A stretch of DNA of 55,723 nucleotides, counting the filler, from Platydemus manokwari (Eukaryota), in the NCBI GenBank assembly GCA_037951405.1. It is 4 parts of 4 records of this genome, joined end to end, with 100 filler letters (N's around TTAATTAATTAA, not from the genome) between each part and the next. Parts side by side here need not be neighbours in the genome. Positions count along the whole stretch, not along the records: positions 15,491 to 29,894 come from JBBMOY011468085.1; 3 more parts are not named here. One strand, 5' to 3'. This document shows positions 3,901 through 43,842 of the stretch, one piece after another. The stretch's first letter is position 1. The number at the start of each line of letters is the position of its first letter. The notes under the pieces are model-generated. The model was not told the DNA's origin, did no database searches, and saw only the letters and a program-made list of their open reading frames with translations. A program made the translations under genes and the position numbers.

Positions 3901-6659
3901 AAAAATATATCACCAATAATCATAATATAAATATAAATTTATTTTAACTCAACAAAAATGATTAATCTCCCATTGAAAGTTTGGAAAAATTGTTTGGAAA
4001 TCTTATTTAAAATTGGGTTTTAATTAAATCTAAATAGCGAAAGAAAAAAAAAACGAAACCCAAACAGCAAAATCGTTAACATTCTTCATCAAGTCCCAGC
4101 AGACCTGAAAAAAAAGCAGCTCAAAAAATTATGAAAAAAAAGTCCTATTCTCTCTCTCGCATTTGTTTTCATTTACCAGCGTTTCCACACAAAACAAAAA
4201 TATTTTACACATTATGAACGAGATATTTGAGGCTCGAAAAAATATCTCCATATTTTTCTCAACCATAAGCCGATTATTTGCAAGAAGGCCATCTAGCACG
4301 AATCTGTCAAAAGGCCAAGTAGCAGCAACAGAACCTGATTTGTAAAGAGCTCTTTTGTTTCACGAATAACTAACTCTAGCTGACTTAATTAAAATCGAAA
4401 AATGAAGTAAAACAATTCTTTGAAGAGAGCGGGTTAATCAATAATGAGATTACACGTAATATTTTAGTTACACATTTTCTGGTCATTGAAAATAATACCA
4501 TAATCATTTTTATTTATTTTCAATAAACAATAATAAATTCCATTTATCAGTAGTATAAAATTCGATGAAATAATTCATATAAATCTCCAATGATTTCAGT
4601 GGAATTTTTGGTTGAAAATGTGCAATGAGATTCGATTTCCAATCGTTTACAAACTGGTTTCACAGCAAAAAATAATTATACCAAAATTTACGTTTTTGTT
4701 TTAATTCGTTGCTCGATTTTCATTGGTGTACATCATAAATGTTTCTTCATCTTTTAATGAATATATCAAATCATAAGAAAATTAAAGATAATTTTGTCGT
4801 GAAATAAAGGAAAATAATTTTATTTGTTTATAATTTTATTTGACCCCCCTCATCCATTTATCAATACGACCTATCAACAAAACGCATTTCCTATCAGGAA
4901 GGAAAAAAAACAAACAAACCACAACAATTCCCAACTCCGAACGAAATCACACATTTGAGTTTCTTAAGCTACTGTTTTTTAAAACAGTATCGGCAATATA
5001 TTAAATAGCAATGAGCAAAGCAGAAATCCCTAAAGTAATTGAGTAACGAATTAGATGATAATTGTAGAGACGATGTAACAAATCATGACATCTTTACACT
5101 GGCTGATAAACCACATTGAATCTGAGACGAATCAGGAGCATGGGGAATAAGAGTTAGTTAATTTAATTTCAAGATTAGTAACAACCTAATAATTGAAATG
5201 CTACTACTTCTACTTCACATAGCGGAGCAACGTAATTATTTAACCATTTCACCGTTGCTAATCCGTATTCATCGAAACACGTCAAAGTTGAAAAGCAACA
5301 AGTACTAAGTCGCTATGAATAAAATGTTATTATTTACATCAGCAAGGTATTCCTAGAATAGATCTACTCTCAAATATTTTCTCTCCAACAATATTCTTCT
5401 TTTTCCATCCCAGCATCGCTTTCTTTCGCATGCATTGTCAGTGCTCAATGAGCTGCAGTCTAACCCAGTCGGGCTAAAAGTGAGCTGCTGAAGCAACCAT
5501 CTTATCGTGTTATTTGCCATGCTAATTAATATGGTAATATTAAAATACCATGCAAATCACTCCCTAAGCACCATATAACCATTTCAAGCGTGATATGAGC
5601 AGAAAATATATATAATTAAACATTTACATTGATTTAGATTGGATTACTACTTAAACACTTGTCAGTAACTCACCATCTTTATTCATCCCCATTAAAAGAC
5701 ATTTCTTCAATCGACATGCTTGACATTGGTTTCGGTGAGCCTTGTCAATTGTACATCTTCCCGTACCTGCTTGACATCTGGAAATAAAGCCTTTGGTGAA
5801 TAGATCATTTCAAATATGAATATCAACACATTTGTGTAGTGATTGACTTCAATAAAAGCTAGTAAAGCGTTATTGGATTGGGGTATTTAAATCTATCATT
5901 GGTTCTATGGTATTTGTTGAATGAGAAGCTAATTGATGGAATCATCAAAAACTTTTGATATCAACCGGAAAAATGAACCCCCGGAAGAAGTTTGGACATT
6001 ATACATTGCGAATTTTACGGTTAGATAAATCTGTTGTTAATATTTTTTTTATTTTACTAATCGATGATAAAAAATTTCCCCTCACTCAAAAATCGATAGG
6101 ATGATAAGATTAAATATAATGCCTATGATCACACAATTATATAGCTGGCTTATATTGTGATGGATGATATTTTCGTCCCTCAACAATCTCCTTTCCAATG
6201 AATTTGCCTTTTATATTTCGTGTTTATATTTCAAAGAACAATAACCAACCGATAAATAAGTTTCCTGCGAACACTCCTTTTAAAAAATCCACTGCACCCA
6301 TTACAAGCCAAAATGCCATAATGTTTGCCACTGCTCACATCGCCACACACCACACAGCATAAACCGTGCAACATCGACGATTTCATGGATTGATGTTGCA
6401 TATTAACGGAATTGGAACTGCTTAACTGGAGATGCATATGCGATCCGGTTTTGACTGGATCATCGTTGAGTAATGATGGCCATCGAGGCGACCGATTGAT
6501 TGAATCGAACAGGAACGATGTTCCCAGTCGGCTCATTGAGAAAGCTGTCAAAAAGTCATTTCTCTTCGATTCACAGGTCACAGCAGAATCATTGCTACTG
6601 GTAACGAGATCAATCGGGCTAATTGAATCAGTGTATTGAGCGTCGCTGTTGCTGAGCAT
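964..6659 (-). CDS. NR2E3: Photoreceptor-specific nuclear receptor NR2E3/PNR (unfulfilled/Hr51/fax-1 orthologue), partial, multi-exon
   Basis: Exon 6661-6250 encodes [36 protein letters not shown] (NGCSG P-box typical of NR2E3). Exon 5777-5674 encodes [34 protein letters not shown]. Exon 1428-~964 begins [10 protein letters not shown] (T-box) and continues in frame into ORF 854..1360. GT/AG boundaries are phase-compatible. The donor at 963 is tentative and no LBD exons were recognised. Confidence 0.92.
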
Positions 6660-8459
6660 TTCTAAAGATAATCAAGTAACATCAATTGCATTAAAAAATC
6701 TCGGGTTGCCATAACATTATCTGCGGGTCGATGATGTTAGTTGTTTTCAATTTGTTCTTGCAGCATTCGATTAGAAATGTGTTATTTACGAGTTTGTTTA
6801 CGGTAACACTCAATAGAAAATAAAACAAATAACTATTGTCAATTAAAATAACAATAATTTCAATGTCAACATCGAAACAGCAAATTCAAACAAATCTCTG
6901 GCAACAGTAACTCAATCTGTTGGTAAATGGTGAGGTGTGAGAATGATGAGTGATATTTGCAGCTTGGTCGAGCTTGTTGCTCAGTGATTGAAGAATGTAA
7001 GTATTTGTTGGCAAAACAATTATAAAGCAAATGACATAGTTGATGTACCAGATGTGCTACTACTCGACCAATGCTCATTGATCGTTTGGCGAGCAACTAC
7101 TAAAAACACCGTTAAATACACACATACATACGCGCACTAGTGTGCATTGTCAATACGAGTTGAACGATTAGCAAAATGTTTTCCTCTCATTGGCGTTTAT
7201 GTCAACACGATATGTGATGATGATGGCTTGTTAAGATGTTTCAAGTTATGCTTGTGTTATCTCTGTCATCAATCAAGATTGTTTGAGAATCCTGCTATGG
7301 TCATCAGCATGATGATACCGGACTTCTTTAAGGTATTCCTCAAACGATCAATGAGTCTCTTCACACCTTGTCAGATTGGTAAATTTTCGATAGAGAAGAA
7401 ATAGATAATAATATAATTTTATTATCTTGGTATGAAAATGGATCAATATGCTAATATCGATCGATGCTAAAGGATAACTCTAAACACCTAATAAGAATTT
7501 CTTAAACAATAATCTTTTAAAAGGAAATCATTATGGGAATCAAAATTGTTTTCCTTCTTTATCGATCAAATAAATGAAAGACATTTCTCATCTCTAGAAC
7601 AAGTGGGTATGGAGAAATTATTATCAACTATGGACGAGATGTTTCACCATAACATTTATACTTTCAATCCTTTTTCAAACCCCATATTGATATCCACTGA
7701 AATATTTCTTTGCCAGTCTCTATAATGTGACACAACGCTCGTTATTTTTGGTTGCCATTACTTTTATTAGCATATCGATAATTGAATTATTTTTCCTTGA
7801 TTTCGGAACATTTTGAAAATCAAGATGTTTTCATTCTCTTCCCAGCACAATTCTCATCAATCATAAATGATATATATATAAATGTAAAACCTTTTTTCTT
7901 GTTTTAATCAATAGAAATCGAATCTCAACGATTCTTTTCGGAGAGGGGCAAAGAAAAATTGAGATAAAAGGGAAAACATGTTGGAAAAAAAATTATCTAA
8001 ATAAATAAATGACAATATGAAAATATTCAGACTAATCATTTGAGTAGAAATCCTGAAAAATGCATTTATTCGAACAAATCAATATATTATCTAAAGGTGG
8101 GGTGATTAATAACTTTTGTTTATATTGTTCATTTATTCAATTATATCGCTAGCTAATTCGGATGGGATTTTAGCTGGAAATCTCCACGGAGAAGAAGTCT
8201 TATCAGGTGAAGGTGATTTCCCAACATTTGATGAGTGTGACGATGAAAGAATTATCATTCAATGCAGAAATGAGCTCTAGTAATTAAGAAATAAAGTTGC
8301 GGCCCGTGATAATCTCCAGGAATTAATTGACTCTAGCCAGATCATCTCCACTTTGGTGTGAGCAGAGCCGATTTTCGGGTGAGGTTAAATAATTAGGGTC
8401 GAGATCATCAAGTGTGAGTATGTTCGTGTGCATCTATAAAGCTGCATCACTAATGTCAT

Positions 8460-15390: not shown

Positions 15391-15490
15391 NNNNNNNNNN
15401 NNNNNNNNNNNNNNNNNNNNNNNNNNNNNNNNNNTTAATTAATTAANNNNNNNNNNNNNNNNNNNNNNNNNNNNNNNNNNNNNNNNNNNN
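15391..15490. other. Artificial assembly spacer (44N-TTAATTAATTAA-44N)
   Basis: The same 100-nt structure occurs three times, and the 12-mer gives stops in all six frames. Confidence 0.97.
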
Positions 15491-15868
15491 TTTGTTGGGT
15501 TTACCAAGACACCCCCCCAGGGAAAAATAAATAATAAAATGATAAATAAGGCATAAATAATAATAATAATAATAGTATTATTATTAATAATATTAATAAT
15601 TAAAAATTAATTAATACTTGAAAGTCATTGAAAAATTCCCAGGGATTTTATTTTTAAACTACTTAAAAGAATAAGATAATCCTCGAAAATAATTTTTATT
15701 TTTAAAGCAGCCTAAAAGAGGCATTTAAATAAAAAATAAGGATCATCATAAAAATGTTTTCAGGGATTTGTTAAGGAATTTTAGAAATATGATCACACTT
15801 TTAGCATTTCAAGTATAATTTTGAAAATATCTGAAGAATTTTTCCAGATGAAGATCAGTCCCAAATAG

Positions 15869-15876
15869 TATATAAG
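15869..15876 (+). promoter_or_regulatory. Putative LTR TATA box
   Basis: TATATAAG here and TATAAAAG at the homologous position in the 3' LTR (29666-29673). A TCAGAG Inr-like motif lies ~35 nt downstream in both. Confidence 0.6.
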
Positions 15877-15919
15877 CAAAGGGATTTCAGTAGATTTTCA
15901 CCCCTCAGAGAACACAGTC

Positions 15920-16255
15920 GGATCAGATATAAAGGATCAGACATAAAGGATCAGATATAAAGCATCAGTGATAAAGGATCAGATATAAAGGATCAGACAT
16001 AAAGGATCAGATATAAAGGACCAGATATAAAGGATCAGATATAAAGCATCAGAGATAAAGGATCAGATATAAAGCATCAGAGATAAAGGATCAGATATAA
16101 AGGATCAGATATAAAGGATCAGAGATAAAGGATCAGATATAAAGGATCAGAGATAAAGGATCAGAGATAAAGGATCAAAGTCAGAGCTACCAAAGGTTCA
16201 GAGCTACTAAAGGATCAGAGCTACCAAAGGATCAGAGCCACCAAGGATCAGACAA
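15920..16255 (+). repeat. Tandem array in 5' LTR: 18 x 14-mer GGATCAGATATAAA, then ~4 x 16-17-mer TCAGAGCTACCAAAGGA
   Basis: Counted directly: 15920-16171 (14-mers with GACAT, GAGAT and GCATC variants) and 16181-~16255. Confidence 0.93.
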
Positions 16256-16787
16256 GTACTACTACTTCTTTTATTCTGGGCTGTGCTTAAAATTCCCCAC
16301 CAAAGGGTTATCGGTGAGCAACCGTTAGGGCTCAGTTGATAACTCGGGAGTTTTTAGCGTCAACGGAACCGTAAGATCTTTCCTTTTTGTTTCGTTTTCT
16401 TATTTTAAGTAAAGTATAATTTTATAAATAGTATTGTATGATATTCTTGATAATATTTCTTTATTAATATTGATTTAATTTTGCATTTGAACTAACATTT
16501 GATTAAACAGTATTTGGACTATAATTGACCATTATCGTATTTGTTTTACTTTTTACCATTGTATTTGTGTGTCGTGTTCAGAATTGATAGTGTGAGGGTT
16601 TGTGGAACATTTCAGACATTTTATTGTGATCCCAGACTTGTGCATTATCCTTTTGAATTTCAGTGTATTGTATTTTATTTCGGTGTGGTATAAATACAAG
16701 TGTTGCTTTACTGATTGTTTTGATTTGCACCACCTAAGATTTTGGAGTCAGGTTAAATTTGATACCCTAAATATTGAACATATTTAT

Positions 16788-16805
16788 TGGTGAGCCCGAC
16801 GTGAT
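16788..16805 (+). other. Primer-binding site complementary to tRNA-Trp 3' end
   Basis: TGGTGAGCCCGACGTGAT, one mismatch from the tRNA-Trp PBS TGGTGACCCCGACGTGAT. It continues TCGAA, complementary to the T-loop. Confidence 0.88.
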
Positions 16806-17187
16806 TCGAAAATCAGTTGGCAATTGTGAAACTGTGGTGCGTGATTGTGTTTATCGATTTTTGTGAAAGTTTGTGTGATTTGTTTTTTTTGGATTCTGTA
16901 AGCCCTGAGTGGCGTTTTGGTAAATTTTTGGAACTTTTAGTAAAGCCCGCAGAGGTATAAAAGTTGTTGGTATATTAATAGTGTTTGAGGAAGAAATCAG
17001 TTAGCGTTTAGAAACTAGTCTGGCTAGTGGAAAGAAATCAGTTACAGATATTCGAGGAGTTATAACCAGAAGTTCGACAAAGGTAATTAAAGGGAGAGGT
17101 ATAGAGGAAAATAATTTAGAAATCGAGGAGAATAATCGAGAAGCAACAGTAGAGGATATTAATACAGGTGTTAAAGAGATAGAAAGA

Positions 17188-18174
17188 ATGGATTACGAAT
17201 TAGTAAAGTTACCGGTTAGGACATTTAATGGGGAACCAACAGAATTTGCAGATTTTATGGCCGAGTATAGGCAAGTAGCAGAAGCTTTAGGATATGATGA
17301 GGCACGGATGGTAAGGAGATTACCGATTCATTTAAGTGGAATGGCAAGGAGTGCATATTATGACATAAATGTAGCGAACAAAACTTGGGCAGAAGTTGTT
17401 AAAGAGTTGACGAAGAAGCTAATTCCAGGAGACATAGGCAGAGTAAATAGGCAAATGTTCCATAAGAGGAAGCAAGGAACAGATGAGCCAGTAGGCGAAT
17501 ACGCATATCAAGTGGAATTATTAGCACAAAGGGCATTTGGACCAAAGAATCAGTGGACAGAAACAATTAAGAAGATTGTAGAGGATCAGTTCTTCATTGG
17601 AATGCTACAACCATTAAGAACAGTGTTAGGATTGGCGGATTACAAAGATTTTGAAGAATTATTACAGAAAGCTCGTAAAGCGGAAATGAATATTAAAGGA
17701 AACCCAACGATGATTTGTGAAATCGGAGCAGTCAGAAGAGATAACAGTAGGACTAGAAATACGGAAATAAAGCGGAATGAGACCAATGATCAGACAGTAA
17801 AGAAATGTTTTAATTGCCAGAAACCAGGACATATAGCAAAGCAATGTCGAGCTAGGAAATTAGAATTAGGTCCAGGTCCAGGAAGGGATCAAAGGAGAAA
17901 TATAGATATAGTTTGCAGAAATTGTAATGAAACAGGGCATTTTGCTAAAGAGTGCAGGATAAAGATTTGTAGATATTGTAACAAAAGAGGACATTTGGAA
18001 GAAACGTGTTGGGCAAAGAATTCACCCCAAAGAGATAACGTAAATATTGATGGAAAGGTACAGTGTTTCAAATGTAAGCAGTATGGGCATATGGCGAAAT
18101 CTTGTCTTAGCGAAAAGACGTCACCAAAAGTAGTTAAAAGATTGGCATTCAGCAATGCAAAAGTAAACATGGTA
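17188..18174 (+). other. gag: Gag domain (capsid + nucleocapsid with four CX2CX4HX4C knuckles)
   Basis: Retrotransposon-gag-like motifs (FNGEP..F, LSGMARSAY, RKQGTDEPVGEYAY). Knuckles: CFNCQKPGHIAKQC, CRNCNETGHFAKEC, CRYCNKRGHLEETC, CFKCKQYGHMAKSC. Confidence 0.9.
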
Positions 18175-21100
18175 AGAGATAGAGAAGAAGATGATGAAAC
18201 AGAAAAATTAAGAGCCGAAAACGAGGAATTAAAGCGACAGTTATTCAGAGTGATTGGCCGAGAAACAATTTCGATGATTCAGCCCCAGGACAATGGAATC
18301 AAGATATTAACCAGAAATGATTCGCTAGAGGAAAAAGTGGATGTTAATGGAAATGTAATCATGGCTTTGGTGGATTTAGATCAAGAAGAATACAATACGC
18401 TTCCTGAAGTGTTAGAAAGAGAATTCGCAAGAATACCGAGAAACAAAGACAGGATTATGGATTTATTAAGTCAAGTAACGGAGTTGGCGGTTACTCCAAT
18501 GATGCTCGGTAGGATAGTTAAGGTGATAAAACCACATATAATGGAATTCGGTGTTCAACAAGCAGAGATTCGATCTGTAATCCGAAGATACGGGAGATAT
18601 ATGAGATTAAGAGGAATGGATCAGCGACCAATAAAAATCAAATTGAAAATGGTTGGATGGGAAGAAATGAACGTGGAATTACACTATTGTGCAAGGGTTC
18701 GTACAATAAGAGAAAAAGCGACTCAAGTAATGGGAAGAGAATGGATCATCGTAATTTTCTGGAATACATACCAGCTAGATGACGACGAGTATTTAATGGA
18801 CTGCGGATGCAATGCAGATGAAGAAACGGTAATAATTGCAGTTCAAGTGGATAGCAACGGACAGCCCGTGTTAACCGGAAATAGATATGAAGAATTAATT
18901 AACCAGACTGGCCAAGGAAGTTTGAGACCACCAGAAGGGACAACGGAAGCACTACGATCTGAAGTTACAGATCCAGACTCAGTGGTTTTAGAAGAAGTAT
19001 CCGAGGAAGAAGAACTCCAAAGACCAATAGGAATATCGCCAGTAGAACAAGCCCAAGAAGAACCACAAAGGGAAGATATTTCAGGACCAGAGGAGCAATC
19101 AAGACCACGACAAGTAAGACCCGGAAGCAATCCAGTTGGGAGACCAAGGAAGGACCCAAATGCTCCACGTCCTCAAGGAATAAGTCGAGAAACTAAAAGA
19201 ATTGTACGAAGGGAGTATCTACACAGATTAGCCGACCGTTACAGGAGACAGCATGAGGAAGAAGCATATGACGAGGCTACAAAAGGAGATCAGGAGCGAT
19301 TACGAAGATTGATCGAATTAATGGATCCATCCATGGAGGCAACCGGAGAACCAGATAATTTAACTATAGAAATATTCTTGGAAATGTCGAAAATTTTATC
19401 AGATATAGAAGATTTTGTTGAAGAACCAGACAGTATGAGCGATGAGGTATGGCTAGCACAATTATGTGAAGGAAGAATGGACAAAGAAAAGGCAATGGTA
19501 GGAATAGCGTTAATTTTGAAGAGAGCCGATAAAATGAATCGGGAGTCAGGGAGACAAAATACAGATATATTAATTCGAGGGGCAAATAAAATGATTGAAG
19601 ACTATTTTGGACCATGGATGCAATTAAACCAAGGATGGCAAAGTTTATTGGGAGTAAAACAGACCTCGGAACCAGATATGGGATCAACTCCAGAAAGATC
19701 ACCCGAACCTCCAAGAAGACAATCAGAGTTTAGACAAAGAACCAGGAGGGAGGAACAACAAGACGAGCCGAGAAGAGATAATAGTCAACCTAGAGGGGAT
19801 AGACGATCGTCAAATGATTCACTATTACCGATGATGTTGATAATGATCATGATGTTCTTAAATATGATGAATCGAACAAATGCATTAGTGGCATACGATT
19901 GCACAAAACCAAAGATGGGAAAAATTTATTCGCTAGTAGATCTCGAAGAATGTCCAGAGGCATATCCAACGAACTTAACAAGTAGAGAGGTGGAATATAA
20001 CATCTACCAAGAGACAGAATTCAGAAGAGCGAATGTTAAAGAATGCATTGTGAAAAAGGCGACTTTTGAGTATTACTGTGGCGTTCACAGCAGAACAGCA
20101 TTTTTGGAAGCAACTCTCATACCAGTTCCAGTTATTGTGAACTCGGAAAACTGTGAATCGGCATTCGTAACAGGAAAGTTACAAATTGCAGCAGGATTAG
20201 CAATTGACGCAAAAATAGGAGTAAGGACAAGACAAGCCATTACCGAAGGAGGAAGTATAGGAGCCGATGGTACATGCAGTGGCAGAGAAAAGTACAGGAA
20301 AGGCGAAAAAGTATCATGGGTGGTCACATATTCAGATTATATGGTACAATTGAGAGAATTTGAGGGAGTATTCGACGCTGTCACAGGAAAAATGCTGTCA
20401 CACCCGTTTTGCAATTTTAAACACACAACATGTGACACAGGAGAATCATTATTGGTATATAGGGTACCATCCACAGATTGTGATATGGTATTTCTGAAGA
20501 AGGTAGTGTTCACGCAATTGGAAGGCGAAAAAGAAAAAGAAAGCATGAGTCGTTCCAGGAGAGTGAGTAAAATAACAAGAGTAACAGAAAGAGTGGAAAA
20601 GGAAAAGACACCAATTGTCTTAATAAGCAGAGATAAAAACGAGGGGATCAGATTTGTCAGGAGAGAGCGAAATCTTAAATGCAATACGGAAGTTTACACT
20701 ACAAATCACAAGGGAATATTCGTCAGTTATCATGACATGGTTGGAGCAAAAAGAGTGAGTAAAACAGATGTGAAGCTAGCAGATTACACTAATACAAAAC
20801 TTGATTTTGTATATCATGTGTTACAACAATCCATGAGAGAGATGTATCATGAGGTTGTAGGGAATGATTGTAAGCTAAATCGGGAGTTGTTGAGAACTCG
20901 GTTTGCAATGATAATTAGCAACCCAGAATTAGTAGCGCCAATGCTCTTACCAGATCAAGGGGTTTTTGCTAGAATGATGGGAGAAGTGATTTACAGTTAT
21001 AAATGTGCAGTGGTGAACGTGCAACTTAGACGAACAGAGGAATGCACCAACGAATTACCAGTCGTATGGGAAAACGAGGAACGATATGTATCACCAGTTA

Positions 21101-24100
21101 CACGAATCTTATTGGAAAAGGAAGCAAAGCCAAAGGTGTTGGAATGTGGGGCAGCAATGTCCCCGATATATAAAATAACTCAGGATATCTGGATTACACT
21201 TCCCGATCGAAAGGAAACAAGCAAGGTGGAAAACTTGGAGTTGTTAAAAATTGAAAGCGGATTAAAGTTTGAGGATTTAGATGAATTGGCGTCAGGAGGA
21301 ATTTATACTACGCAAGATATTGAAGAAGCTAGAAGAAATATGATGTTCCCAGAGAGAAGAGAAAGAGTATTAACCCATCTAGTAGATGCGGTGATGCAAG
21401 GGAACGGAGGATCAGCAGATAAAAGAAATTACGAGGTTCTACTTAGTCCAGACCATTACAAGAAAGCAGCCATGAAACTGTTGGAAAAGACATGGGGAAA
21501 ATTTACAGGATTTGGAAATTTTATGGCAGGAATAATTGGAATTTACACAATATTCATGTTGGTTAAATGGGGATTATCTCAAATAATGTCGGTATACACG
21601 TTATACAGGACTATCGGGTTCACATGGAGATTGATTACAGCATGTTTACCATTTTTAGCAAAGTTTGTTATTATCCATCATCATGGAAAAGAGCTAACAA
21701 AGCTTAAGAGAATTTTTCATGAAAGAAAACCAGAGGAACCAGAAGGCGAATTGGAAGTGGTGGTAAAAACATGTGAAAGTTCAACTAGTAGTAATGAAGG
21801 CGAATCCGGATTTTTCTCACATCAAGCACAAAGACCAAAAATAAAGAGGAAAAAGAGAATACCGACAGCGCCAGTCGGTGGCGAATATCTCAAGATTGAT
21901 AGGAGATTACCCAAGGTGCCGGTTCGTTATACATCATTAATTGGGTTACGTCCAACAATATATCCGACATTAGATCCGTTTATTTACGACGAAATACCAG
22001 GAAAGGAGCAGGACGCAGATGGAAAAATGGAAGAGAAACAGCAAGATCGAGAACTCGATGAGGAAGAAGTAGCTAGATTAGGAGTTCCAGTATACAAGCC
22101 CAGAGTAAACATGATTAAATCAGGAAAACGAAGAGTCGATGATAAGAGTGTAATAAAGGTCAAAATTAATGGAAGGTTGGTATCAGCGTTACTGGATTCA
22201 GGAGCTACTGTATCAATTATTAGCGATAAAATTCTAACAAATGGCGAAAGGAACAATATGAAACCAGCATCAGGAGCCCAAACATTGACTGGACAGAATT
22301 TTGAGTTTCAAGGGAAGGTAATATGTGTAGTCGAACTAGGAGGTCACAAGATAGAGCATGGCATGCGAGTAATGACCAATTGTCCGTACGATGGGTTAAT
22401 CGGAATGGATATCCTATCGCAGCTACAAGGCGTAGCGTTTGATTTAGTCACAGGAAATCTTATCCCAGTTCACGACAGCAGAGGACGCAGGCGTGCAGTG
22501 AACGATATAGTATTGCATGAAAATCTACTACTACCGCCGAGAGCAGAAACAGTATGCTTTATTACAGCAGGAGTACAAGGAAAGGGAGCAATGCATTTTA
22601 AGCCCAGTATCGAATTGCGATGGTTACATGGGGCAGTTGACGAGGTAGTAGAAATAAGAGACGGAAAGATTCCAATACGAGTAGTAAATTTTGATGTAAA
22701 AGAAAAACAGCTTTACACAAAAATGAAGATTGGACAATTACAACCTTTAACAAATGAACCTTACGCAGATTCTATAAACGTATTACGGCCAAGTACAATT
22801 AAGAAATATAAACCAACAATTATCACAAGCCAGAATTTGACGGAAAGGCAGCGAGAGTATTTGCAGAAAGTAATTTGGAAATTTGATCATGTATTTGCTA
22901 AGGATGACTACGACTTAGGGTGTACACATATACTCAAGCACAAAATTGTTTTGACAGATTCCGCACCCATTAAGCAAAGGGCCTATAGACAACCATACGC
23001 ATTAGAAGAAGAAATAAACCAGCAAATTAATGACATGTTGAAAGTAGGAACTATTGAGCCAAGTTCCTCACCATGGGCATCACCCGTAGTAATGGTAAAG
23101 AAGAAGGACGGATCAATCAGAATGTGTATTGATTATAGGAAGGTTAATGAAGTAACCAGGAAAGACACATATCCTATACCAGTGATAGAAATGATGTTTG
23201 ATAAAATCAAGAGGTCGAAAATATTTACCGTAATGGATTTACAAAAAGGATATAACCAGGTGGCAATGGATGAAGATAGTAAAGAAATTACTGCTTTTGT
23301 GACAAGTAAAGGTCTATATCAATACAATAAGATGCCTTTTGGGTTAACAGGCGCTCCAGCAACGTTTCAAAGATTGATGAACTTGATATTAATGGATGTT
23401 GAGCATGCAATGGTTTACCTAGATGATATAATAATCTTTTCTTTGAATGGAGATGAACACATAAAGGACATAGCAGCGGTCTTACAAAGATTAAAGGTAG
23501 CAGGATTAAAAGTGAAACCAACCAAATGTGAATGGGCAAAAAGCGAAGTAAAATACGTAGGTCATATAGTATCAGGATCAGGAATTCGACCAGACCCAGA
23601 GAATGTGAAGAAAGTGGCGAATTTTGCAACACCAAAGAACACAAAGGAAGTCAGAGAATTCCTTGGATTAGCAGGATATTACAGGAGATTTATAAAGAAT
23701 TACGCAAAAATAGCAGCACCGTTGAACGATTTGTTAAAAGGGGAAGCAAAGGCTCTCAAACGAAAAGTAAAACGAGAAAAGTTAGTCAATATAATAGAAA
23801 AACAAGTAAACAAATTTGTGTGGGGAGACGAACAACAAAAAGCATTCGAACAATTAAAAGAACAATTAATAAGTGAACCGATATTGAGATACCCAGATAT
23901 GGCAAAACCATTTCTGTTAATGACAGATGCAAGTGGATACGCAGTAGGAGCAATTTTAGCGCAACAAGCAGAAGGCGAAAAGGATCACGTCATAGCATAC
24001 GCAAGTAGGGGATTGAAGAAACACGAACTTAACTATGCAACAATAGAAAAAGAAGCGCTAGCAATAGTATTCGCAGTCAAGAAATTCAGACATTATTTGT

Positions 24101-26919
24101 GGGGACGGAAAATTACCCTGTTTACAGATCATAGTCCATTACAGTGGTTATTGAAAAATAGAGATACGGCAAGTCGACTTATCAGATGGGCTTTGATATT
24201 ACAGGAATATGACATCGAAATTCGTTACCGGAAGGGAAGAGCAAACGCAAATGCGGATACATTATCAAGGATGAAGCAGGACGAATTATCAAGCGAGGAA
24301 GCACAGCTGGGAGAAGAAGATGAAACGGTATTAGCAGTAATCCGACGAGTAAACACAGTGGATTCTAGAGAAGAAGATCAAAAAGAAGACGAAGATATAG
24401 TATTGATAAAGGAATGTATGGCGGGACAAGTTCCGGAAGATTGGCAAAAGAGTTGGGAAAAACTAAAGGACAAATTCAAAATTAAAGAGGGCATTTTATA
24501 TTTTATCAGAGACAAAGAGTTATGCTATGTAGTACCTAGTAAGGATAGGGATCCAATAATGATGCAATATCATGACGGGGCACTAGGAGGACATCTATCA
24601 GCAAGGAAAACGCTATCAAGAATTTCAAGAAAATATTTTTGGCCTAAGATGGAACAAAACATAAGGAATTGGTGTCAATCATGTAAAATCTGTCAGACAC
24701 GGAAAGGAACAGGAGCCAGAACAAAAGTGCCGCTCAAACCAATCAGAGCACCATTGGCACCCATGGAAATGGTAGCAATGGATGTCGTAGGACCATTACC
24801 AGAAACGACAGATGGAAATCGATATATACTGGTAATGTGTGATTACTTCACGAAATGGCCAGAGGCCTATGCAATGAAAAATCAGAAGGCGGCAACAATA
24901 GCAAAACTTTTCGTAGAAGAAATTATTTTTAGATATGGAGCTCCCAGGAAATTGTTAACGGACAAAGGAACAAATTTTATGAGCGAATTGATAAAAGAGA
25001 TATGTGTTTTATTCGCGATACTTAAGCTCAATACATCACCATATAGACCACAAACGGATGGATTAGTAGAAAGATTTAATGGAACATTGCTCAAGATGCT
25101 TTCGTCGTATACGAACAAGGGTCAAACAGATTGGGATGTACACATATCGTCATGCTTATTTGCATACAGAAACGCAGTTCATACTGCCACAGGAGAAACC
25201 CCATTCTATCTAATGTATCTCAGAAACAATAATATGCCGATTGATTTAGACTATGTAAAACCAACTTCGCAATATCTGGAGGAAGAAGATTATAAAATAA
25301 CAATGCAAGAAAGACTACAGGAGGCATGGGAGAAAGCAGGGCTCAATATAAAATATGGACAAGAAAAATACAAAGAACGATACGATAGAACGGCAAAAGA
25401 ACATAATTTTAAAATTGGAGATAAGGTCATGGTAGAGACACCGGAACCAATACGAGGTAAGACACCTAAGCTTCAAAGAACGTTCAAAGGTCCGTACACC
25501 GTAGAAAAAGTAACACCAACAAATCTTTCTTTAGTAAGCACTCGAAAATCTGGATCATCATTTATAGTTCACGCCAATCGATGCAAGAAATGGGTGGAAC
25601 AGACCAAGGAACGGTATCCGTTACGATCCAGAGAGCAGAAGAACCTGGTAGCAAGTGTTAAACCATCAAGATGGTTTTGGCTACCCTTAATAATGATGAC
25701 AATTTGTGGAACAACAGGGGAGACAAAAATGAAAGAAATCAACATCAGCGTAAGAAGCACAGGAATAAAAGTTTCAGGAAAGCCTATGCGACTAGTGGTC
25801 CAGTGTATTGGTATTCAATCGGAACACAATCAGGAAAAAGAGGGCAAATGTCGAATACCATACAGTGTCAGAGATAATATTTACATCAGAGTAAAGGAGC
25901 ATGTAAACAAGACCGACATTGCACAGTTCAAAGTTATCTTTTTGGGCCCTAGAAATCGAAATTGGCAGGGGTCTAGAGTAGTTGAAATATTAATAATTTG
26001 GTTCAATAGCAATTATACTCTTGGGATTGTACATATAGATGAAGAAGAGCCATCATATACTCCGAATTGCGGATGGAAAGCATTAACAGCGCATAAGAGT
26101 TTTAGTACCGTCTTATGGGGAACTGTTAAAGACTGCCAATACGAGGACTTTGACAATTTGGAAGAAGAGATAGAAGAATCGAATTCAATAACGAAAATCA
26201 AATGCTCTAAGGAAAATGAAACGAACATTAAAGAACAATTGGACGTACTATACAAAGACAAGGGACCGAGCAGACGTGGACTCAAACCCGCTATAAGGTG
26301 GACAACAAGTACGAGTGGAGAAATGAAACGGAGACGCAAGACCACAACTACACCGAGAACGACGATGAGGACGAGCAAAACGATGAAAAGCACGAGTAGA
26401 AAAACGACATCAGAACGGAAAACAGAAACTACAACATCAAAAGGAACAAGCCCAGGAGATGTGCAAACCAAGAAAATGGAAGTATCAACGAAACCCAGCA
26501 CTAGACGTTTTGTTAAAATCAATCCAATAAAAGATGGAATTAATTGGGAAGTGAGGAAACCGGTACCAATAATTTCCCCGAAGAGAAGTAAGAAAGGAAA
26601 ACTAGGATCAAGAAAACGAAAGTTAGAAAAGGAAGCAGTGGAGAGAATGACAAATTGGGTTATGGCCGCAGGGGCTTGTGGAGCAGCACTGATAATTATG
26701 TCTACAGCAGCATTGTGTTGCCATGTTAGGAAACGTTGGAGAAGAAAACGAAGAAGGGTAATGAAGAGGAAAATGAAAAAGTTGTCAAGTTTGGAACTTC
26801 CAACCGAAATCCAGCCGCTAGCAAGAAATGAAGAAAATTGGATTTTAGAGCCGTGTCCGAAACAGGAAATGTACAATCAGATAACAAGTTTCAGGCGAAT
26901 AGAGGAGCATATAGTTTGA
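17188..26919 (+). CDS. 3243-aa Gag-Env(gB/chuvirus-like)-Pol-membrane protein polyprotein
   Basis: Uninterrupted ORF. It has a Gag capsid-like region, 4 CCHC knuckles (17806-18105), a Cys-rich glycoprotein (19822-21675), protease LLDSGA (DSG 22195), RT YLDD (23416), RNase H TDASG (23923), IN HHCC (24571-24693), D-D-E (24781, 24961, ~25069), GPY, and a C-terminal signal-ectodomain-TM module. Confidence 0.97.
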   Translation: MDYELVKLPVRTFNGEPTEFADFMAEYRQVAEALGYDEARMVRRLPIHLSGMARSAYYDINVANKTWAEVVKELTKKLIPGDIGRVNRQMFHKRKQGTDEPVGEYAYQVELLAQRAFGPKNQWTETIKKIVEDQFFIGMLQPLRTVLGLADYKDFEELLQKARKAEMNIKGNPTMICEIGAVRRDNSRTRNTEIKRNETNDQTVKKCFNCQKPGHIAKQCRARKLELGPGPGRDQRRNIDIVCRNCNETGHFAKECRIKICRYCNKRGHLEETCWAKNSPQRDNVNIDGKVQCFKCKQYGHMAKSCLSEKTSPKVVKRLAFSNAKVNMVRDREEDDETEKLRAENEELKRQLFRVIGRETISMIQPQDNGIKILTRNDSLEEKVDVNGNVIMALVDLDQEEYNTLPEVLEREFARIPRNKDRIMDLLSQVTELAVTPMMLGRIVKVIKPHIMEFGVQQAEIRSVIRRYGRYMRLRGMDQRPIKIKLKMVGWEEMNVELHYCARVRTIREKATQVMGREWIIVIFWNTYQLDDDEYLMDCGCNADEETVIIAVQVDSNGQPVLTGNRYEELINQTGQGSLRPPEGTTEALRSEVTDPDSVVLEEVSEEEELQRPIGISPVEQAQEEPQREDISGPEEQSRPRQVRPGSNPVGRPRKDPNAPRPQGISRETKRIVRREYLHRLADRYRRQHEEEAYDEATKGDQERLRRLIELMDPSMEATGEPDNLTIEIFLEMSKILSDIEDFVEEPDSMSDEVWLAQLCEGRMDKEKAMVGIALILKRADKMNRESGRQNTDILIRGANKMIEDYFGPWMQLNQGWQSLLGVKQTSEPDMGSTPERSPEPPRRQSEFRQRTRREEQQDEPRRDNSQPRGDRRSSNDSLLPMMLIMIMMFLNMMNRTNALVAYDCTKPKMGKIYSLVDLEECPEAYPTNLTSREVEYNIYQETEFRRANVKECIVKKATFEYYCGVHSRTAFLEATLIPVPVIVNSENCESAFVTGKLQIAAGLAIDAKIGVRTRQAITEGGSIGADGTCSGREKYRKGEKVSWVVTYSDYMVQLREFEGVFDAVTGKMLSHPFCNFKHTTCDTGESLLVYRVPSTDCDMVFLKKVVFTQLEGEKEKESMSRSRRVSKITRVTERVEKEKTPIVLISRDKNEGIRFVRRERNLKCNTEVYTTNHKGIFVSYHDMVGAKRVSKTDVKLADYTNTKLDFVYHVLQQSMREMYHEVVGNDCKLNRELLRTRFAMIISNPELVAPMLLPDQGVFARMMGEVIYSYKCAVVNVQLRRTEECTNELPVVWENEERYVSPVTRILLEKEAKPKVLECGAAMSPIYKITQDIWITLPDRKETSKVENLELLKIESGLKFEDLDELASGGIYTTQDIEEARRNMMFPERRERVLTHLVDAVMQGNGGSADKRNYEVLLSPDHYKKAAMKLLEKTWGKFTGFGNFMAGIIGIYTIFMLVKWGLSQIMSVYTLYRTIGFTWRLITACLPFLAKFVIIHHHGKELTKLKRIFHERKPEEPEGELEVVVKTCESSTSSNEGESGFFSHQAQRPKIKRKKRIPTAPVGGEYLKIDRRLPKVPVRYTSLIGLRPTIYPTLDPFIYDEIPGKEQDADGKMEEKQQDRELDEEEVARLGVPVYKPRVNMIKSGKRRVDDKSVIKVKINGRLVSALLDSGATVSIISDKILTNGERNNMKPASGAQTLTGQNFEFQGKVICVVELGGHKIEHGMRVMTNCPYDGLIGMDILSQLQGVAFDLVTGNLIPVHDSRGRRRAVNDIVLHENLLLPPRAETVCFITAGVQGKGAMHFKPSIELRWLHGAVDEVVEIRDGKIPIRVVNFDVKEKQLYTKMKIGQLQPLTNEPYADSINVLRPSTIKKYKPTIITSQNLTERQREYLQKVIWKFDHVFAKDDYDLGCTHILKHKIVLTDSAPIKQRAYRQPYALEEEINQQINDMLKVGTIEPSSSPWASPVVMVKKKDGSIRMCIDYRKVNEVTRKDTYPIPVIEMMFDKIKRSKIFTVMDLQKGYNQVAMDEDSKEITAFVTSKGLYQYNKMPFGLTGAPATFQRLMNLILMDVEHAMVYLDDIIIFSLNGDEHIKDIAAVLQRLKVAGLKVKPTKCEWAKSEVKYVGHIVSGSGIRPDPENVKKVANFATPKNTKEVREFLGLAGYYRRFIKNYAKIAAPLNDLLKGEAKALKRKVKREKLVNIIEKQVNKFVWGDEQQKAFEQLKEQLISEPILRYPDMAKPFLLMTDASGYAVGAILAQQAEGEKDHVIAYASRGLKKHELNYATIEKEALAIVFAVKKFRHYLWGRKITLFTDHSPLQWLLKNRDTASRLIRWALILQEYDIEIRYRKGRANANADTLSRMKQDELSSEEAQLGEEDETVLAVIRRVNTVDSREEDQKEDEDIVLIKECMAGQVPEDWQKSWEKLKDKFKIKEGILYFIRDKELCYVVPSKDRDPIMMQYHDGALGGHLSARKTLSRISRKYFWPKMEQNIRNWCQSCKICQTRKGTGARTKVPLKPIRAPLAPMEMVAMDVVGPLPETTDGNRYILVMCDYFTKWPEAYAMKNQKAATIAKLFVEEIIFRYGAPRKLLTDKGTNFMSELIKEICVLFAILKLNTSPYRPQTDGLVERFNGTLLKMLSSYTNKGQTDWDVHISSCLFAYRNAVHTATGETPFYLMYLRNNNMPIDLDYVKPTSQYLEEEDYKITMQERLQEAWEKAGLNIKYGQEKYKERYDRTAKEHNFKIGDKVMVETPEPIRGKTPKLQRTFKGPYTVEKVTPTNLSLVSTRKSGSSFIVHANRCKKWVEQTKERYPLRSREQKNLVASVKPSRWFWLPLIMMTICGTTGETKMKEINISVRSTGIKVSGKPMRLVVQCIGIQSEHNQEKEGKCRIPYSVRDNIYIRVKEHVNKTDIAQFKVIFLGPRNRNWQGSRVVEILIIWFNSNYTLGIVHIDEEEPSYTPNCGWKALTAHKSFSTVLWGTVKDCQYEDFDNLEEEIEESNSITKIKCSKENETNIKEQLDVLYKDKGPSRRGLKPAIRWTTSTSGEMKRRRKTTTTPRTTMRTSKTMKSTSRKTTSERKTETTTSKGTSPGDVQTKKMEVSTKPSTRRFVKINPIKDGINWEVRKPVPIISPKRSKKGKLGSRKRKLEKEAVERMTNWVMAAGACGAALIIMSTAALCCHVRKRWRRKRRRVMKRKMKKLSSLELPTEIQPLARNEENWILEPCPKQEMYNQITSFRRIEEHIV
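19822..21675 (+). other. env: Envelope glycoprotein domain, chuvirus/herpesvirus-gB-like (putative class III fusogen)
   Basis: Hydrophobic signal LLPMMLIMIMMFLNMMNRTNA, then LVAYDC...YSLVDLEECP. 14 ectodomain Cys, GEVIYSYKC..V.V..R.TEECTNELPV motif, RSRR furin-type site, SGGIYT motif and C-terminal hydrophobic segments. The pattern was recognised by eye as chuvirus-like G. Confidence 0.78.
22102..25620 (+). other. pol: Pol: aspartic protease, reverse transcriptase, RNase H, integrase
   Basis: LLDSGAT, SPWASPVVMVKKKDG.IRMCIDYR, MPFGL, YLDD, TDAS, EKEALA, TDH, H-x6-H...C-x2-C, MDVVGP, TDKG, GLVERFN, FKGPY. Confidence 0.97.
25672..26919 (+). other. Second type I membrane protein fused after integrase
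   Basis: Signal-like WFWLPLIMMTICGTTG, ectodomain with 4 N-glycosylation sequons (NIS, NKT, NYT, NET), T/S/K-rich stalk, TM WVMAAGACGAALIIMSTAALCC (26656-26721) and polybasic tail RKRWRRKRRR. Confidence 0.7.
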
Positions 26920-27157
26920 ATGGGTATGAGTGATGATACGGTATGAACAGATGTTTGTGTTAAATAATTAATTATTACTTATTATATATGTATTTTATTT
27001 TCATTTTTCATTTAATTTTTTTTTCTTTCTTCCTTCCTCTCTTTCTTTTACCTCTAGTGTGTCGTATCGCTAGGAATATTAAGCACAGTCCCAGATAAAA
27101 TTGTTATATTGTCGTATATATAACAATTAATGATATTTTATTTCCAGAAAACAAACA

Positions 27158-29167
27158 ATGGAATATTACAAGCCCGGCATGAAGCCCGTCACAATCACTT
27201 TTCCGTCATTTATAGTCCAAGAACAACCGAGAATGAACCATTTGTTAGGGAAAGTTGATTTAAATAAACCCCTTACACTGGAGAAGAAAATATCAGTAAT
27301 AGGCGATAAGGGAGTAGAAATAATGAGGAACTGGTTTAGGCAAAACTCCGGAGCTATGAAATGGTTCCCGGAAGTAGAAGCCATCCCAAACAGATTAAAG
27401 GGCCGAAGGACAGACAATCGGCAAATGTTCTGTATTGGGAAAAGAATCCCAGCGATCGATTTGGTTTACCTCAGCCGATGGGGGCAAACCATAGATTTCC
27501 TGAGCACTGGTAAAGTGTTAGTAATAGAAAAACGGCCACAAGAAATAAGAGCCGAAGAATTTCTACCAGAAGCTCAGGCATCCCTCATTATGAAAGGAGA
27601 AGCGGATGTGGAGATCTATTTAATTCCAATCCGGCCTACCATTATAGAAGTGACCAACCGAAGAAGAGAAGAATGGAACCCAGCCAGAAAAGAAAAGCCA
27701 GAATGGGACATCATCCCACCCGAAGAATGGAACAAGAGGCAACCATTTGCTGACAGCAAATGGTTAGCAAACCCCGATGAAGACCAAATAGTCATATTGG
27801 ACGTCAAATTGGGCGTACCAATGTTTATGAATAAAATGGTCCCCTTAGGAGCAGCTTTATCAGATAGAAGAGGAAATTTCTATTTCCGCTCCATAATAAC
27901 ACCTCGCGCTTATATAGCCGATTACAGGGCAGCTGACCACGGAATAACCCAAGACATAGCTCAGGGACAAATGGATGAGTTGGCAGCAAAGTTGGAACTA
28001 AGCAAATTATTGGAAGGGAAAATAGTAATAGGATACGAAGTTAAGAAGGCTTTGGAAGCAGTAAGAGTCGATAAAAGCTGGATAAGAGGGTATTGGGATT
28101 TGGCAACCTTACCCATCTTAAAGAAAGATAAATTGATCGCGTTAAGAAGAGATGGAACAGCTTCTTTACATTTATTGGTTCAATATTACGCGAACAAGAG
28201 AATGACAGACAGAAGAGGATGTCTGGCTCTAACCAGAAATGCATCTTTTATGCAAGGAGTATGGGCAAGCGTAGCTGAAAGATGCATCGAAGAAATGCAA
28301 GAAGAAAGAAGAAGAAACATTAACCAAAAGGTGGAAGAAAAGAAGACAGGTTTAGAACAGATCAGAATGAGTAGAAATGAAGTAGTTAAGGAAATTGGTA
28401 AGCATTTGATACAACAGATAGAGACAAAGCCAACAACTAGTAGAATGTTGGAGGAATCTGTAATGGAAATCTCAGAGTCCTCAGATGAAAAATCGCAGGA
28501 ACCAAGGAAAGTAGACGAAGCAAGAAGTATAACGCCAAACAACGAGGATATGTTCTCAGACAATAGCGAAGATAAGCAAGAAAGAGACAGTTTGGCAAAG
28601 AAATATCAGAAGTTTAGAAGAAGGTTTAAATCACCCCCAGTGGATATGGATGACAGTAGTGAAGAATTTGAGGTAATGTTAACTAGAGAAGAACATGCCA
28701 GGAGACAACGGGAAAAAGAGAAAAAGAAAGAAACTGAAGTAAAGATAGTGGTAACGGATTTTGAGCGAAAAGTTGTCATAAACAAGTCACCAAAAGACAC
28801 AAGGGGAGGAAAAGAAGATAAGATAGAAGAGGACGAGGTCGTGGTGTTAACTGAGACCATAGACCTATCAGGGGAGACTACAGAAGAAGAAGAGGAAGAG
28901 AAAGAAGACAGTCAGGAATCAGAAAACCCTAGTAACAAGAAGGAACAAAGAACAGGATTGCGGTTAACATCATCATTAGCCGACATCCATGAAATGAGTA
29001 AAACTAATGGATGGTTTTGGAAGGAAATAGTGTTGGAGTCGAAGAAGACAGGACAGGAATTAGTTTTAATAAATGATAGGAAAAGGAAGTCAGCAAGGGA
29101 TCAACAAATGATGGGAAAGATGGAATGTGACCGGGCCAGAGCCACGAAGAAGACAAAGAGGAGCTGA
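27158..29167 (+). CDS. Element ORF2, 669 aa: degenerate DEDDh (REXO4/ISG20-like) exonuclease domain plus acidic/basic low-complexity tail
   Basis: 27788-28265 aligns by eye to REXO4/ISG20: VILDVK, I.P...IADYR...GI, L.KLLEGKIVIGY, WDL, SL..L. The ORF is intact, lies inside the LTRs and has the same A-rich codon bias as the polyprotein. Confidence 0.75.
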   Translation: MEYYKPGMKPVTITFPSFIVQEQPRMNHLLGKVDLNKPLTLEKKISVIGDKGVEIMRNWFRQNSGAMKWFPEVEAIPNRLKGRRTDNRQMFCIGKRIPAIDLVYLSRWGQTIDFLSTGKVLVIEKRPQEIRAEEFLPEAQASLIMKGEADVEIYLIPIRPTIIEVTNRRREEWNPARKEKPEWDIIPPEEWNKRQPFADSKWLANPDEDQIVILDVKLGVPMFMNKMVPLGAALSDRRGNFYFRSIITPRAYIADYRAADHGITQDIAQGQMDELAAKLELSKLLEGKIVIGYEVKKALEAVRVDKSWIRGYWDLATLPILKKDKLIALRRDGTASLHLLVQYYANKRMTDRRGCLALTRNASFMQGVWASVAERCIEEMQEERRRNINQKVEEKKTGLEQIRMSRNEVVKEIGKHLIQQIETKPTTSRMLEESVMEISESSDEKSQEPRKVDEARSITPNNEDMFSDNSEDKQERDSLAKKYQKFRRRFKSPPVDMDDSSEEFEVMLTREEHARRQREKEKKKETEVKIVVTDFERKVVINKSPKDTRGGKEDKIEEDEVVVLTETIDLSGETTEEEEEEKEDSQESENPSNKKEQRTGLRLTSSLADIHEMSKTNGWFWKEIVLESKKTGQELVLINDRKRKSARDQQMMGKMECDRARATKKTKRS

Positions 29168-29260
29168 AAGGAGAGCCGAAGACAAATGATAAACAATGAT
29201 AACTATTTAGTGATTTAGTGAAATTAAATAAATTTTTTTGTGATTACGACTCAGTTAATC

Positions 29261-29294
29261 AAATTCGAGGGGTCGAATTTTTATAAATCGGGAG
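29261..29294 (+). other. Hairpin AAATTCGA-GGGG-TCGAATTT followed by short polypurine tract before the 3' LTR
   Basis: Perfect 8-bp inverted repeat at 29261-29280, then AAATCGGGAG immediately before TGTTTG. Confidence 0.65.
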
Positions 29295-29894
29295 TGTTTG
29301 TTGGGTTTACCAAGACACCCCCCCGGGGAAAAATAAATAATAAAAATGATAAATAATGCATAAATAATAATAATAATAATAATAATATTAATTAATTAAA
29401 AATTAATTAGTACTTGAAAGTCATTGAAAAATTCCCAGAAATTTTATTTTTAAAATACTTAAAAAAATAAGATAATCCTCGAAGATAATTTATAATTTTA
29501 AAGCAGTCTAAAAGAGGCATTTTAATAAATAATAAGGATAATTATAAAAATATTTTCAGGGAATTGTTAGGAAATTTTAGGGATACGATGATACTTTTAG
29601 AATTTTGAGAATAATTTTGAGAATTTCTGAAGACTTTTTCCCAGACGAAGATCAGTCCCAAATAGTATAAAAGCGAAGGGATTTTAGTAAATTTTCACCC
29701 CTCAGAGAACGTACAGAATAATTAGAAGAGGAAGATAGTATTCGATTTTAAAACAGAAGATATTATTCGATTTTGAAACAGAAGATATTATTCGATTTTG
29801 AAACAGAAGATATTATTCGATTTTGCAATAGGAAGATAGTATTCGATTTTGAAACAGGAAATATTATTCGATTTTGAAACAGAAGATATTATTC
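29295..29894 (+). repeat. 3' LTR (truncated by gap)
   Basis: Starts TGTTTGTTGGGTTTACCAAGACACCCCCCC and aligns with the 5' LTR up to CCCCTCAGAGAAC (29710). Confidence 0.88.
29731..29894 (+). repeat. Tandem array in 3' LTR: ~6.5 x 25-mer GAAGATATTATTCGATTTTGAAACA
   Basis: Counted directly; the array runs into the gap. Confidence 0.92.
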
Positions 29895-29994
29895 NNNNNN
29901 NNNNNNNNNNNNNNNNNNNNNNNNNNNNNNNNNNNNNNTTAATTAATTAANNNNNNNNNNNNNNNNNNNNNNNNNNNNNNNNNNNNNNNNNNNN
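29895..29994. other. Artificial assembly spacer
   Basis: 44N-TTAATTAATTAA-44N. Confidence 0.97.
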
Positions 29995-30131
29995 ATTAAA
30001 TAAATTCAAAAGCATGAAATTTTAAGTCTTTTAAAATAAAAATATATAATGTAAAACTTAATTCTGTTTAAATAATGTGAATAATATACATTTAAATTAT
30101 TCTTATTCCATATTTATTATTAGTCATTTTC

Positions 30132-30554
30132 ATGTTACGTACTAAAGCACTTTCTACAACACTTAATCATTATGTTGGGTCTGGAGTTGATTCGATATTA
30201 TTATTTACTTCTGAAGGAATTATACTAGCCCAATCAAACGTAAATTCGAACGATGAAAAAACTAAGGCTGCAATTGTCGCAAATATATGGAATATTTATC
30301 AAAGACAACAAGATAATGTACCGGTTGTATGTGAATAATATTTTTAAAAATTTTATATCCTAATATCCCAGGACGATCAAATTCAGGAACTATTAATAGA
30401 ACTAGAATTTGGAAAATTGGCTATTAGTAAAGTTGGAACAGTGTTATTATGTTTATGTGGATCTCGAAATGCTGAATTTGGAATGATAAGAGCAAAAATG
30501 GTCACATTAATTGACCGATTAACTGATCCAATTTGTAAATTGACAGGGGTATAG
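30132..30554 (+). CDS. LAMTOR2: Ragulator complex protein LAMTOR2 (roadblock domain), 2 exons
   Basis: MLRTKAL...GVDSILLFTSEG...AAIVANIW / ...LLCLCG...FGMIRAK matches LAMTOR2 (MLRPKAL, AAIASNIW, FGMLKAK). Exons 30132-30326 and 30372-30554 with a phase-0 GT..AG intron. Confidence 0.92.
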
Positions 30555-43742: not shown

Positions 43743-43842
43743 NNNNNNNNNNNNNNNNNNNNNNNNNNNNNNNNNNNNNNNNNNNNTTAATTAATTAANN
43801 NNNNNNNNNNNNNNNNNNNNNNNNNNNNNNNNNNNNNNNNNN
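43743..43842. other. Artificial assembly spacer
   Basis: 44N-TTAATTAATTAA-44N. Confidence 0.97.

Follow-up and report, generated by a model that had tools for sequence, protein, structure and literature searches.

A predicted gB/chuvirus-type envelope protein within the single gag-env-pol reading frame of a Ty3/gypsy element from Platydemus manokwari

How does what looks like a viral membrane fusion protein come to lie in the middle of a retroelement polyprotein, and what might it do there? The question is raised by a stretch of DNA of 55,723 nucleotides, filler included (the window), made of four parts of the Platydemus manokwari genome (GCA_037951405.1), in which positions 15,491 to 29,894, from JBBMOY011468085.1, hold a Ty3/gypsy element. 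A single open reading frame (ORF) runs through the element from 17188 to 26919 on the plus strand and specifies 3243 amino acids (aa), with no stop codon and no N. A first-pass annotation, made from the sequence alone, held that the segment 19822-21675 encodes a class III fusion glycoprotein like those of chuviruses and herpesviruses (gB), captured between gag and protease. The segment, here called env, is indeed in frame with both, as aa 879-1496 of the ORF. The assignment to gypsy is also sound: Pfam domains occur in the order protease, reverse transcriptase (RT), RNase H, integrase (PR-RT-RH-IN), the top match in the PDB is Ty3 Gag-Pol (E 3e-117), and there is no BEL/Pao family among the window's 16 Pfam matches. 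From the sequence and a predicted fold, Env is likely a working fusogen of a mobile Ty3/gypsy element of the planarian-type gag-env-pol lineage, one that probably spreads from cell to cell.

What Env is can be judged first from its own sequence. It begins with an internal signal peptide (19822..19884, plus strand), whose Met-rich hydrophobic stretch at aa 878-892 reaches 2.68 on the Kyte-Doolittle scale with a 13-residue window and is overlooked by a 19-residue window at a threshold of 1.5. The signal ends TNA|LVAYDC, and cleavage is predicted after TNA, placing the start of mature Env at nucleotide 19885. In the 10 relatives shown, an (A/G)(Y/F)DC start is likewise preceded by this motif. The predicted ectodomain (19885..21519) contains exactly 14 cysteines within 545 aa, one N-glycosylation sequon, and a flexible loop with the furin-like sequence RSRR at 20551. 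Its motifs start at 19930 (SL.D.EECP), 20071 (YYCG.HS), 20269 (G.C.G), 20980 (GEVIYSYKC), 21043 (C.NELPV), and 21298 and again 21538 (GIYT). The end of Env (21508..21675) is hydrophobic in two segments, 21508-21588 and 21619-21675, with mean hydrophobicities of 0.62 and 0.58. The first is the predicted membrane anchor (aa 1441-1467), and the second (aa 1476-1496) is a more amphipathic helix, with a hydrophobic moment of 0.30 vs 0.18 for the first. This second helix is kept in eight of the ten relatives examined and was not located by pattern in the other two. All of the features that the annotation had listed, signal, cysteines, motifs, and terminal hydrophobic segments, are thus where it had placed them.

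The class of the protein is addressed by profiles and by structure prediction. Env matches the Pfam family Monjiviricetes_fusion (PF24664) with E 1.2e-94. The match scores 318 bits, where the cut-off is 27, and extends over positions 5-600 of the 653-position profile. Two weak additional matches, to herpesvirus gB (PF00606, E 0.0015) and to Borna virus G (E 0.019), both fall below cut-off. A word-index search for homologues gave two matches, with none among longer proteins and none for ORF2, the second ORF of the element; a profile search of 1.84 billion representatives was productive instead, returning 1477 Env homologues at E<=0.001. Of the 14 Env cysteines, 12 occupy positions that are at least 90% conserved when 122 sequences are aligned. 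Set against the PDB, the single Env sequence reaches only E 0.15, and the profile built from the 122 sequences gives 34 matches at E<=1, 33 of them to herpesvirus gB, the best at E 0.007.

An AlphaFold2 model of the Env monomer made from the same alignment has a mean pLDDT of 92.0 and a pTM of 0.73, with long beta-hairpins and a central helix of 48 residues (residues 298-345). Foldseek places models of chuvirus-related glycoproteins at the top (E 1.7e-38, TM 0.81, 18% identity), and in the PDB all matches listed are herpesvirus gB, the best being that of pseudorabies virus (E 3.1e-15, TM 0.47). By profile and predicted fold, then, Env is a class III fusion glycoprotein of the gB/chuvirus type, as the annotation had supposed. 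The likeness to Jingchuvirales glycoproteins and herpesvirus gB lies in the predicted class III fold; identity with them is 11-22%, and they are free-standing proteins, unlike Env, which is embedded in a polyprotein.

Could the order gag-env-pol be an artefact, either a chimera of the assembly or a gypsy element into which an endogenous chuvirus element happened to insert? The element stands alone on its contig between two gaps, and in insects fragments of chuvirus glycoproteins are often flanked by gypsy fragments (PMC10084718). Against this idea stand a frame of 9.7 kb without a stop and junctions that are bridged in other runs. The stretch is contained in 11 public runs (none of those listed is an RNA run), ten of which have at least half of its words, and contigs of four runs, one of which may be the window's own source, were aligned to 16300-26930. 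One contig, from the run labelled X4, spans 16883-21841, from gag to beyond the Env anchor, with 16 differences and no gap. The junction from env to protease is crossed by contigs of runs X1 and X2 and that from integrase to the tail by contigs of X1, X2, and X4. The same order is moreover found in relatives whose Env is about 40% identical. Because of these relatives and the bridging contigs, I regard the artefact as refuted in substance and hardly credible, and the annotation was right to place env between gag and protease in one frame.

The aligned runs yield 267 variant sites, of which the best-supported 40 were considered, 39 of them within the ORF (ORF2 lies outside the aligned range). 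Of the variants listed, those that are synonymous amount to 10/10 in env, 9/11 in pol, 3/4 in gag, 4/6 in the region between Gag and Env, 3/4 in the tail, and 1/4 in the linker that follows Env. The share expected is 21% if all changes are counted and 33% for transitions, and against the one-third expectation the result for env has a probability of about 2e-5. Env is under purifying selection. The neutral decay relative to pol that the annotation had raised as evidence against its view was not found.

Selection on env could also be understood if the copy had been domesticated by the host, in the manner of syncytin, or if it were an immobile relic whose env the host has kept. Near-identical sequence is found in 10 of the 11 listed runs, and the LTR-like repeats (LTR, long terminal repeat) at the two ends of the element are mismatched; both would fit. 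Domestication usually preserves env alone. Here Gag, Pol, and tail have all stayed intact, the variants in pol speak of constraint there too, and distant relatives have the same full layout. I judge this explanation quite improbable and return to a mobile element with a working Env.

The repeats themselves need some comment. The 5' LTR-like repeat (15493..16785, plus strand) starts with TGTTG directly after a gap and contains tandem arrays of a 14-mer and a 17-mer. Its 3' end was inferred from a sequence resembling a primer binding site, starting TGG (16786..16803, plus strand), which presumably matches tRNA-Trp. The 3' LTR-like repeat (29299..29894, plus strand) is ended by a gap and has a different tandem unit, a 25-mer. 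From repeat start to repeat start (15493 to 29299) the element measures 13.8 kb. The two repeats, compared over 15493-15913 and 29299-29710, are 9.5% diverged, with 39 differences in 409 aligned columns. Since neutral ageing to that extent should have put about 27 stops into the ORF, which has none, the repeats are probably not a matched pair left by one old insertion. Their mismatch suggests a mosaic of the assembly or recombination between copies. Because both adjoin gaps, a target-site duplication is not visible. The window has three gaps (15391-15490, 29895-29994, and 43743-43842), each with an artificial TTAATTAATTAA spacer, and the element occupies the whole contig between the first two. 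GC content is 38.8% in the internal part of the element vs 27-30% in the flanks.

Then there is the question of when env was acquired. In ten of 16 relatives scanned, protease or RT comes after env within one ORF. At the DNA level, a query with a single protein found no loci of relatives in metagenomes, and one with an alignment recovered three; contigs of viral and prokaryote genomes gave none. Two metagenome contigs, L001 and L002, have the whole gene order, with only L002 extending into Gag, and are 40% identical to the window in env and 50% in pol. Neither has a pair of LTRs. From the 119 rows that passed a coverage filter, every one of the 13 polyprotein rows and the first 55 of the shorter rows were taken into a quick, unrooted env tree of 68 rows. 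The 13 polyprotein rows all belong to one set of 16 (SH-aLRT 95), separate from 50 free-standing glycoproteins. The three rows of the set that are not polyproteins are 447-748 aa long and may be fragments. RT and env trees of nine rows have three pairs in common and place the window and the relatives P0013 and P0016 differently. The trees and the layout of the relatives argue that env has been inherited within the clade. What the annotation called capture is thus upheld for an old ancestor of the clade and not for a fresh event in this element.

Several of the relatives have peculiarities of their own. Tandem domains resembling aspartic proteases occur in P0157, P0009, P0008, P0007, P0011, P0019, L001, and L002, some of them 3' of integrase. 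P0157, Burro-like, has seven protease-like stretches together with ankyrin and C2H2 domains in an ORF of 4844 aa. P0013 is HBK71150.1, deposited as a protein of a Flavobacteriaceae metagenome-assembled genome, and is probably eukaryotic contamination of its bin.

The layout is not new. The annotation considered the position of env upstream of pol to be the unusual part, and this does not stand: Arkhipova and Yushenova (2019, PMC6431247) described an in-frame env placed between gag and pol in planarian Burro elements, and GAG-ENV-POL errantiviruses with ENV of the gB type have been described in flatworms, nematodes, and bryozoans (Chary and Hayashi 2026, eLife, PMC13524379). With the Platyhelminthes "ancient errantiviruses" (C1a) of the latter work the element has in common gene order, gypsy Pol, and Env of the HSV/gB type. 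The closest published env among the rows viewed there is that of Smed_errantivirus_4, from Schmidtea, identical by eye at 38 of 69 positions counted from the start of Env domain I, a kinship that makes a flatworm host plausible; the window env is not identical to any of the six Smed rows. It resembles Burro/GYPSM1, whose env matches mononegavirus glycoproteins, in having accessory ORFs and a single polyprotein with Gag, CCHC knuckles, and an in-frame env that separates Gag from Pol (PMC6431247). Unlike Burro/GYPSM1, which exceeds 30 kb and has 4873 aa, it is compact, and Pfam finds in the window none of the Burro-type cargo (MATH, BIR, BCL2, ankyrin, dUTPase). The element therefore works like Burro in layout and is not filed as Burro, set apart by its size and its Pfam content.

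Two other systems deserve comparison. The Anakin elements (Dezordi et al. 2020, PMC7642597) have a glycoprotein of the same family on a BEL/Pao backbone, unlike the gypsy backbone here. In the env tree, P0066, a homologue linked to DUF5641, sits in the free-standing part. Sacco et al. in 2022 are said to have described nematode endogenous retroviruses (NERVs) with the order gag-env-pro-pol, which like the present element have Env preceding pol in a gypsy element. Membership in that group was considered and rejected: 19 Nematoda_C1 env rows of PMC13524379 lack the visible motifs of the window env and look unrelated to it, and searches of the published env rows with Y/F/W/H-CG motifs match Smed rows only.

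How might such a polyprotein be made and used? I propose that Gag is synthesised in the cytosol, after which the internal signal peptide would insert the chain co-translationally into the endoplasmic reticulum (ER). A cut by signal peptidase after TNA would free the N-terminus of Env, whose ectodomain would fold in the ER lumen and trimerise. The first hydrophobic segment would act as stop-transfer and anchor Env, and the second, amphipathic helix, lying on the cytosolic face, would keep protease, RT, and integrase in the cytosol. The element's own protease would then release Pol. A second signal 3' of integrase may return the chain to the ER, to give a second surface protein. With Env made in cis, capsid and Pol would be held at the membrane where particles bud, and fusion of membranes by Env would allow particles to pass between cells.

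Several points tell against this account of a spreading element with a working fusogen. The two hydrophobic segments at the end of Env (0.62 and 0.58) allow more than one topology. No fusion loop was identified in Env; the model offers two candidate hairpin tips, neither of them clearly hydrophobic. One ORF implies Gag, Env, and Pol in a ratio of 1:1:1 unless splicing or turnover adjusts it. Because the repeats are 39/409 columns apart, the copy is not established as a clean recent insertion. Finally, the best-supported variant sites may be biased towards old synonymous variants, with the qualification that the linker (1/4 synonymous) shows that non-synonymous sites also reach the listing.

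A different use of Env would require no free infectious particles at all. It might be kept for work inside cells or where cells touch, as a tether of capsids to the ER membrane or a means of direct passage from cell to cell. The physical fusion of Env between Gag and Pol fits tethering well, and the mechanism of transmission by env is said to be elusive for most elements (PMC13524379). Tethering, on the other hand, needs a signal and an anchor only, and what has been kept across 122 homologues is the whole class III architecture with 12 cysteines. I consider such a role unlikely, if less so than the other alternatives, and continue to favour a fusogen that carries particles between cells.

The second surface protein in this scheme is the tail of the ORF (25669..26919, plus strand), a predicted type I membrane protein fused 3' of integrase. 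It comprises a signal-like segment, a beta-rich, Cys-containing ectodomain, a Ser/Thr-rich stalk, a transmembrane (TM) segment at 26656-26730, and a basic cytoplasmic tail (11 K/R among the 15 residues after the TM). Six relatives extend past integrase: P0009, P0013, P0017, P0157, L001, and L002, of which P0009 and P0157 are close kin. The layout of signal, ectodomain, stalk, and TM is clear in five of the six and looser in P0017. Their content is another matter. The post-integrase proteins of five relatives have in common the motif C-x2-L-x2-[DNSE]-[TQ]-x-[YI], and a five-unit profile of the relatives' tails, which does not recover the units of P0009 and P0013, gives six PDB matches, all six to fibronectin or sevenless (E 0.5-1.6). 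Pfam fn3 has no match in these proteins, and an FN3-like fold in them is suggestive only. For the tail in the window such a fold is not supported: the motif is absent, hhalign gives a probability of 0.1%, and 351 of 984 scored shuffles do as well as the real sequence. The window's tail ectodomain has no Atlas match and no detectable homology to the tail ectodomains of the relatives, and a single-sequence AlphaFold model of the tail has a pLDDT of 37. As far as these comparisons go, the post-integrase membrane protein is conserved in position and not in content.

Between its env and its main protease, L001 has an additional cassette (4748-5326) of signal, ectodomain, and TM with the FN3-like motif of the relatives' post-integrase proteins, making three membrane proteins in one ORF. 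On the strand opposite the window's Ser/Thr-rich tail there is an open frame of 287 aa (26013-26876, minus strand) with no Pfam match, probably a by-product of codon bias.

Downstream of the long ORF lies ORF2 (27158..29167, plus strand), whose 669 aa include a domain like that of ISG20/REXO4 (DEDDh fold) and an acidic C-terminus of low complexity. In the PDB it matches human ISG20 (E 1.2e-7). L001 and L002, the two relatives with DNA in this region, both have downstream ORFs similar to it (BLAST, about E 1e-13), and these match Pfam RNase_T (E 1.4e-5 and 1.1e-3) and retain the catalytic acidic residues. The DEDDh set of four acidic residues and a histidine is not complete in ORF2, and its C-terminal catalytic motif aligns poorly with those of L001 and L002. 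Since ORF2 clearly retains just the first of the acidic positions, it is probably a catalytically inactive pseudo-nuclease. A possible splice acceptor lies immediately 5' of its ATG. Small coiled-coil-like ORFs, alike by eye, lie beside the exonuclease ORF at 12229-12666 in L001 and 11375-12043 in L002.

It may be, tentatively, that the post-integrase protein is the attachment partner of the gB-type fusogen, and if that is true, retroelements have evolved split machinery for attachment and fusion. With equal reserve, the lineage might be regarded as a retrovirus-like virus with two glycoproteins, a gB-type fusogen and a fast-evolving, swappable attachment protein, provided also with an ISG20-like (pseudo-)nuclease that would counter the small-RNA defence of the host. 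The attachment protein would come from the end of the same polyprotein, with FN3-like repeats in relatives, a beta-rich domain unrelated to these in the present element, and a duplicate between env and protease in one relative. The comparison is with herpesviruses or paramyxoviruses, in which a fusogen is paired with a separate attachment protein.

Nothing specific was found in print on a post-integrase membrane protein or an ISG20-like downstream ORF in such elements, most subscription literature being outside the scope of the search. The work of Sacco et al. may include accessory ORFs that overlap with these. A term search of the main text of PMC13524379 found neither the membrane protein nor a DEDDh-like ORF. 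There is a precedent in LTR elements of rotifers with ORFs for a DEDDy exonuclease and for TM proteins (PMC5408684).

To the published group the element contributes one more intact, compact, and constrained member, sound but not exceptional. Since the Env model is confident and the domain borders are clean, it lends itself to experiments on whether envelopes of gB-type retroelements fuse membranes, a question that the 2026 survey does not settle (PMC13524379), and on the processing of a gag-env-pol polyprotein that spans the membrane. A more interesting lead than env itself is the conserved position of a surface protein 3' of integrase.

The remaining parts of the long ORF, all on the plus strand, are as follows. 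Gag (17188..18204) has a capsid-like region and four CCHC zinc knuckles (Pfam zf-CCHC, E 1.5e-18, four stretches) and is similar by BLAST to the N-termini of relatives. Between Gag and Env is a region of about 540 aa (18205..19821), in part common to relatives (BLAST, E 3e-11 to P0008 and 8e-9 to L002) and with no Pfam match. The linker or cytoplasmic tail after Env (21676..22140) is weakly constrained, judging by its variants. Pol (22141..25587) contains an aspartic protease (LDSG at 22192), RT (YLDD at 23416), RNase H, and integrase (GPY at 25489).

Elsewhere in the window are compact host genes with short introns: 6231-6671 (minus), 30096-30554 (plus), 36346-38313 (minus), 42458-43156 (minus), 47433-49659 (minus), and 51602-53295 (plus). 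Their products include a nuclear receptor zinc finger, a Syk/ZAP70-like kinase with SH2, LARP1, and probably a LAMTOR2-like protein and an ATF6-like bZIP protein. The Syk/ZAP70-like kinase family is not known from nematodes, which also speaks against membership of the element in the nematode group. The host DNA in the window is AT-rich and gene-dense.

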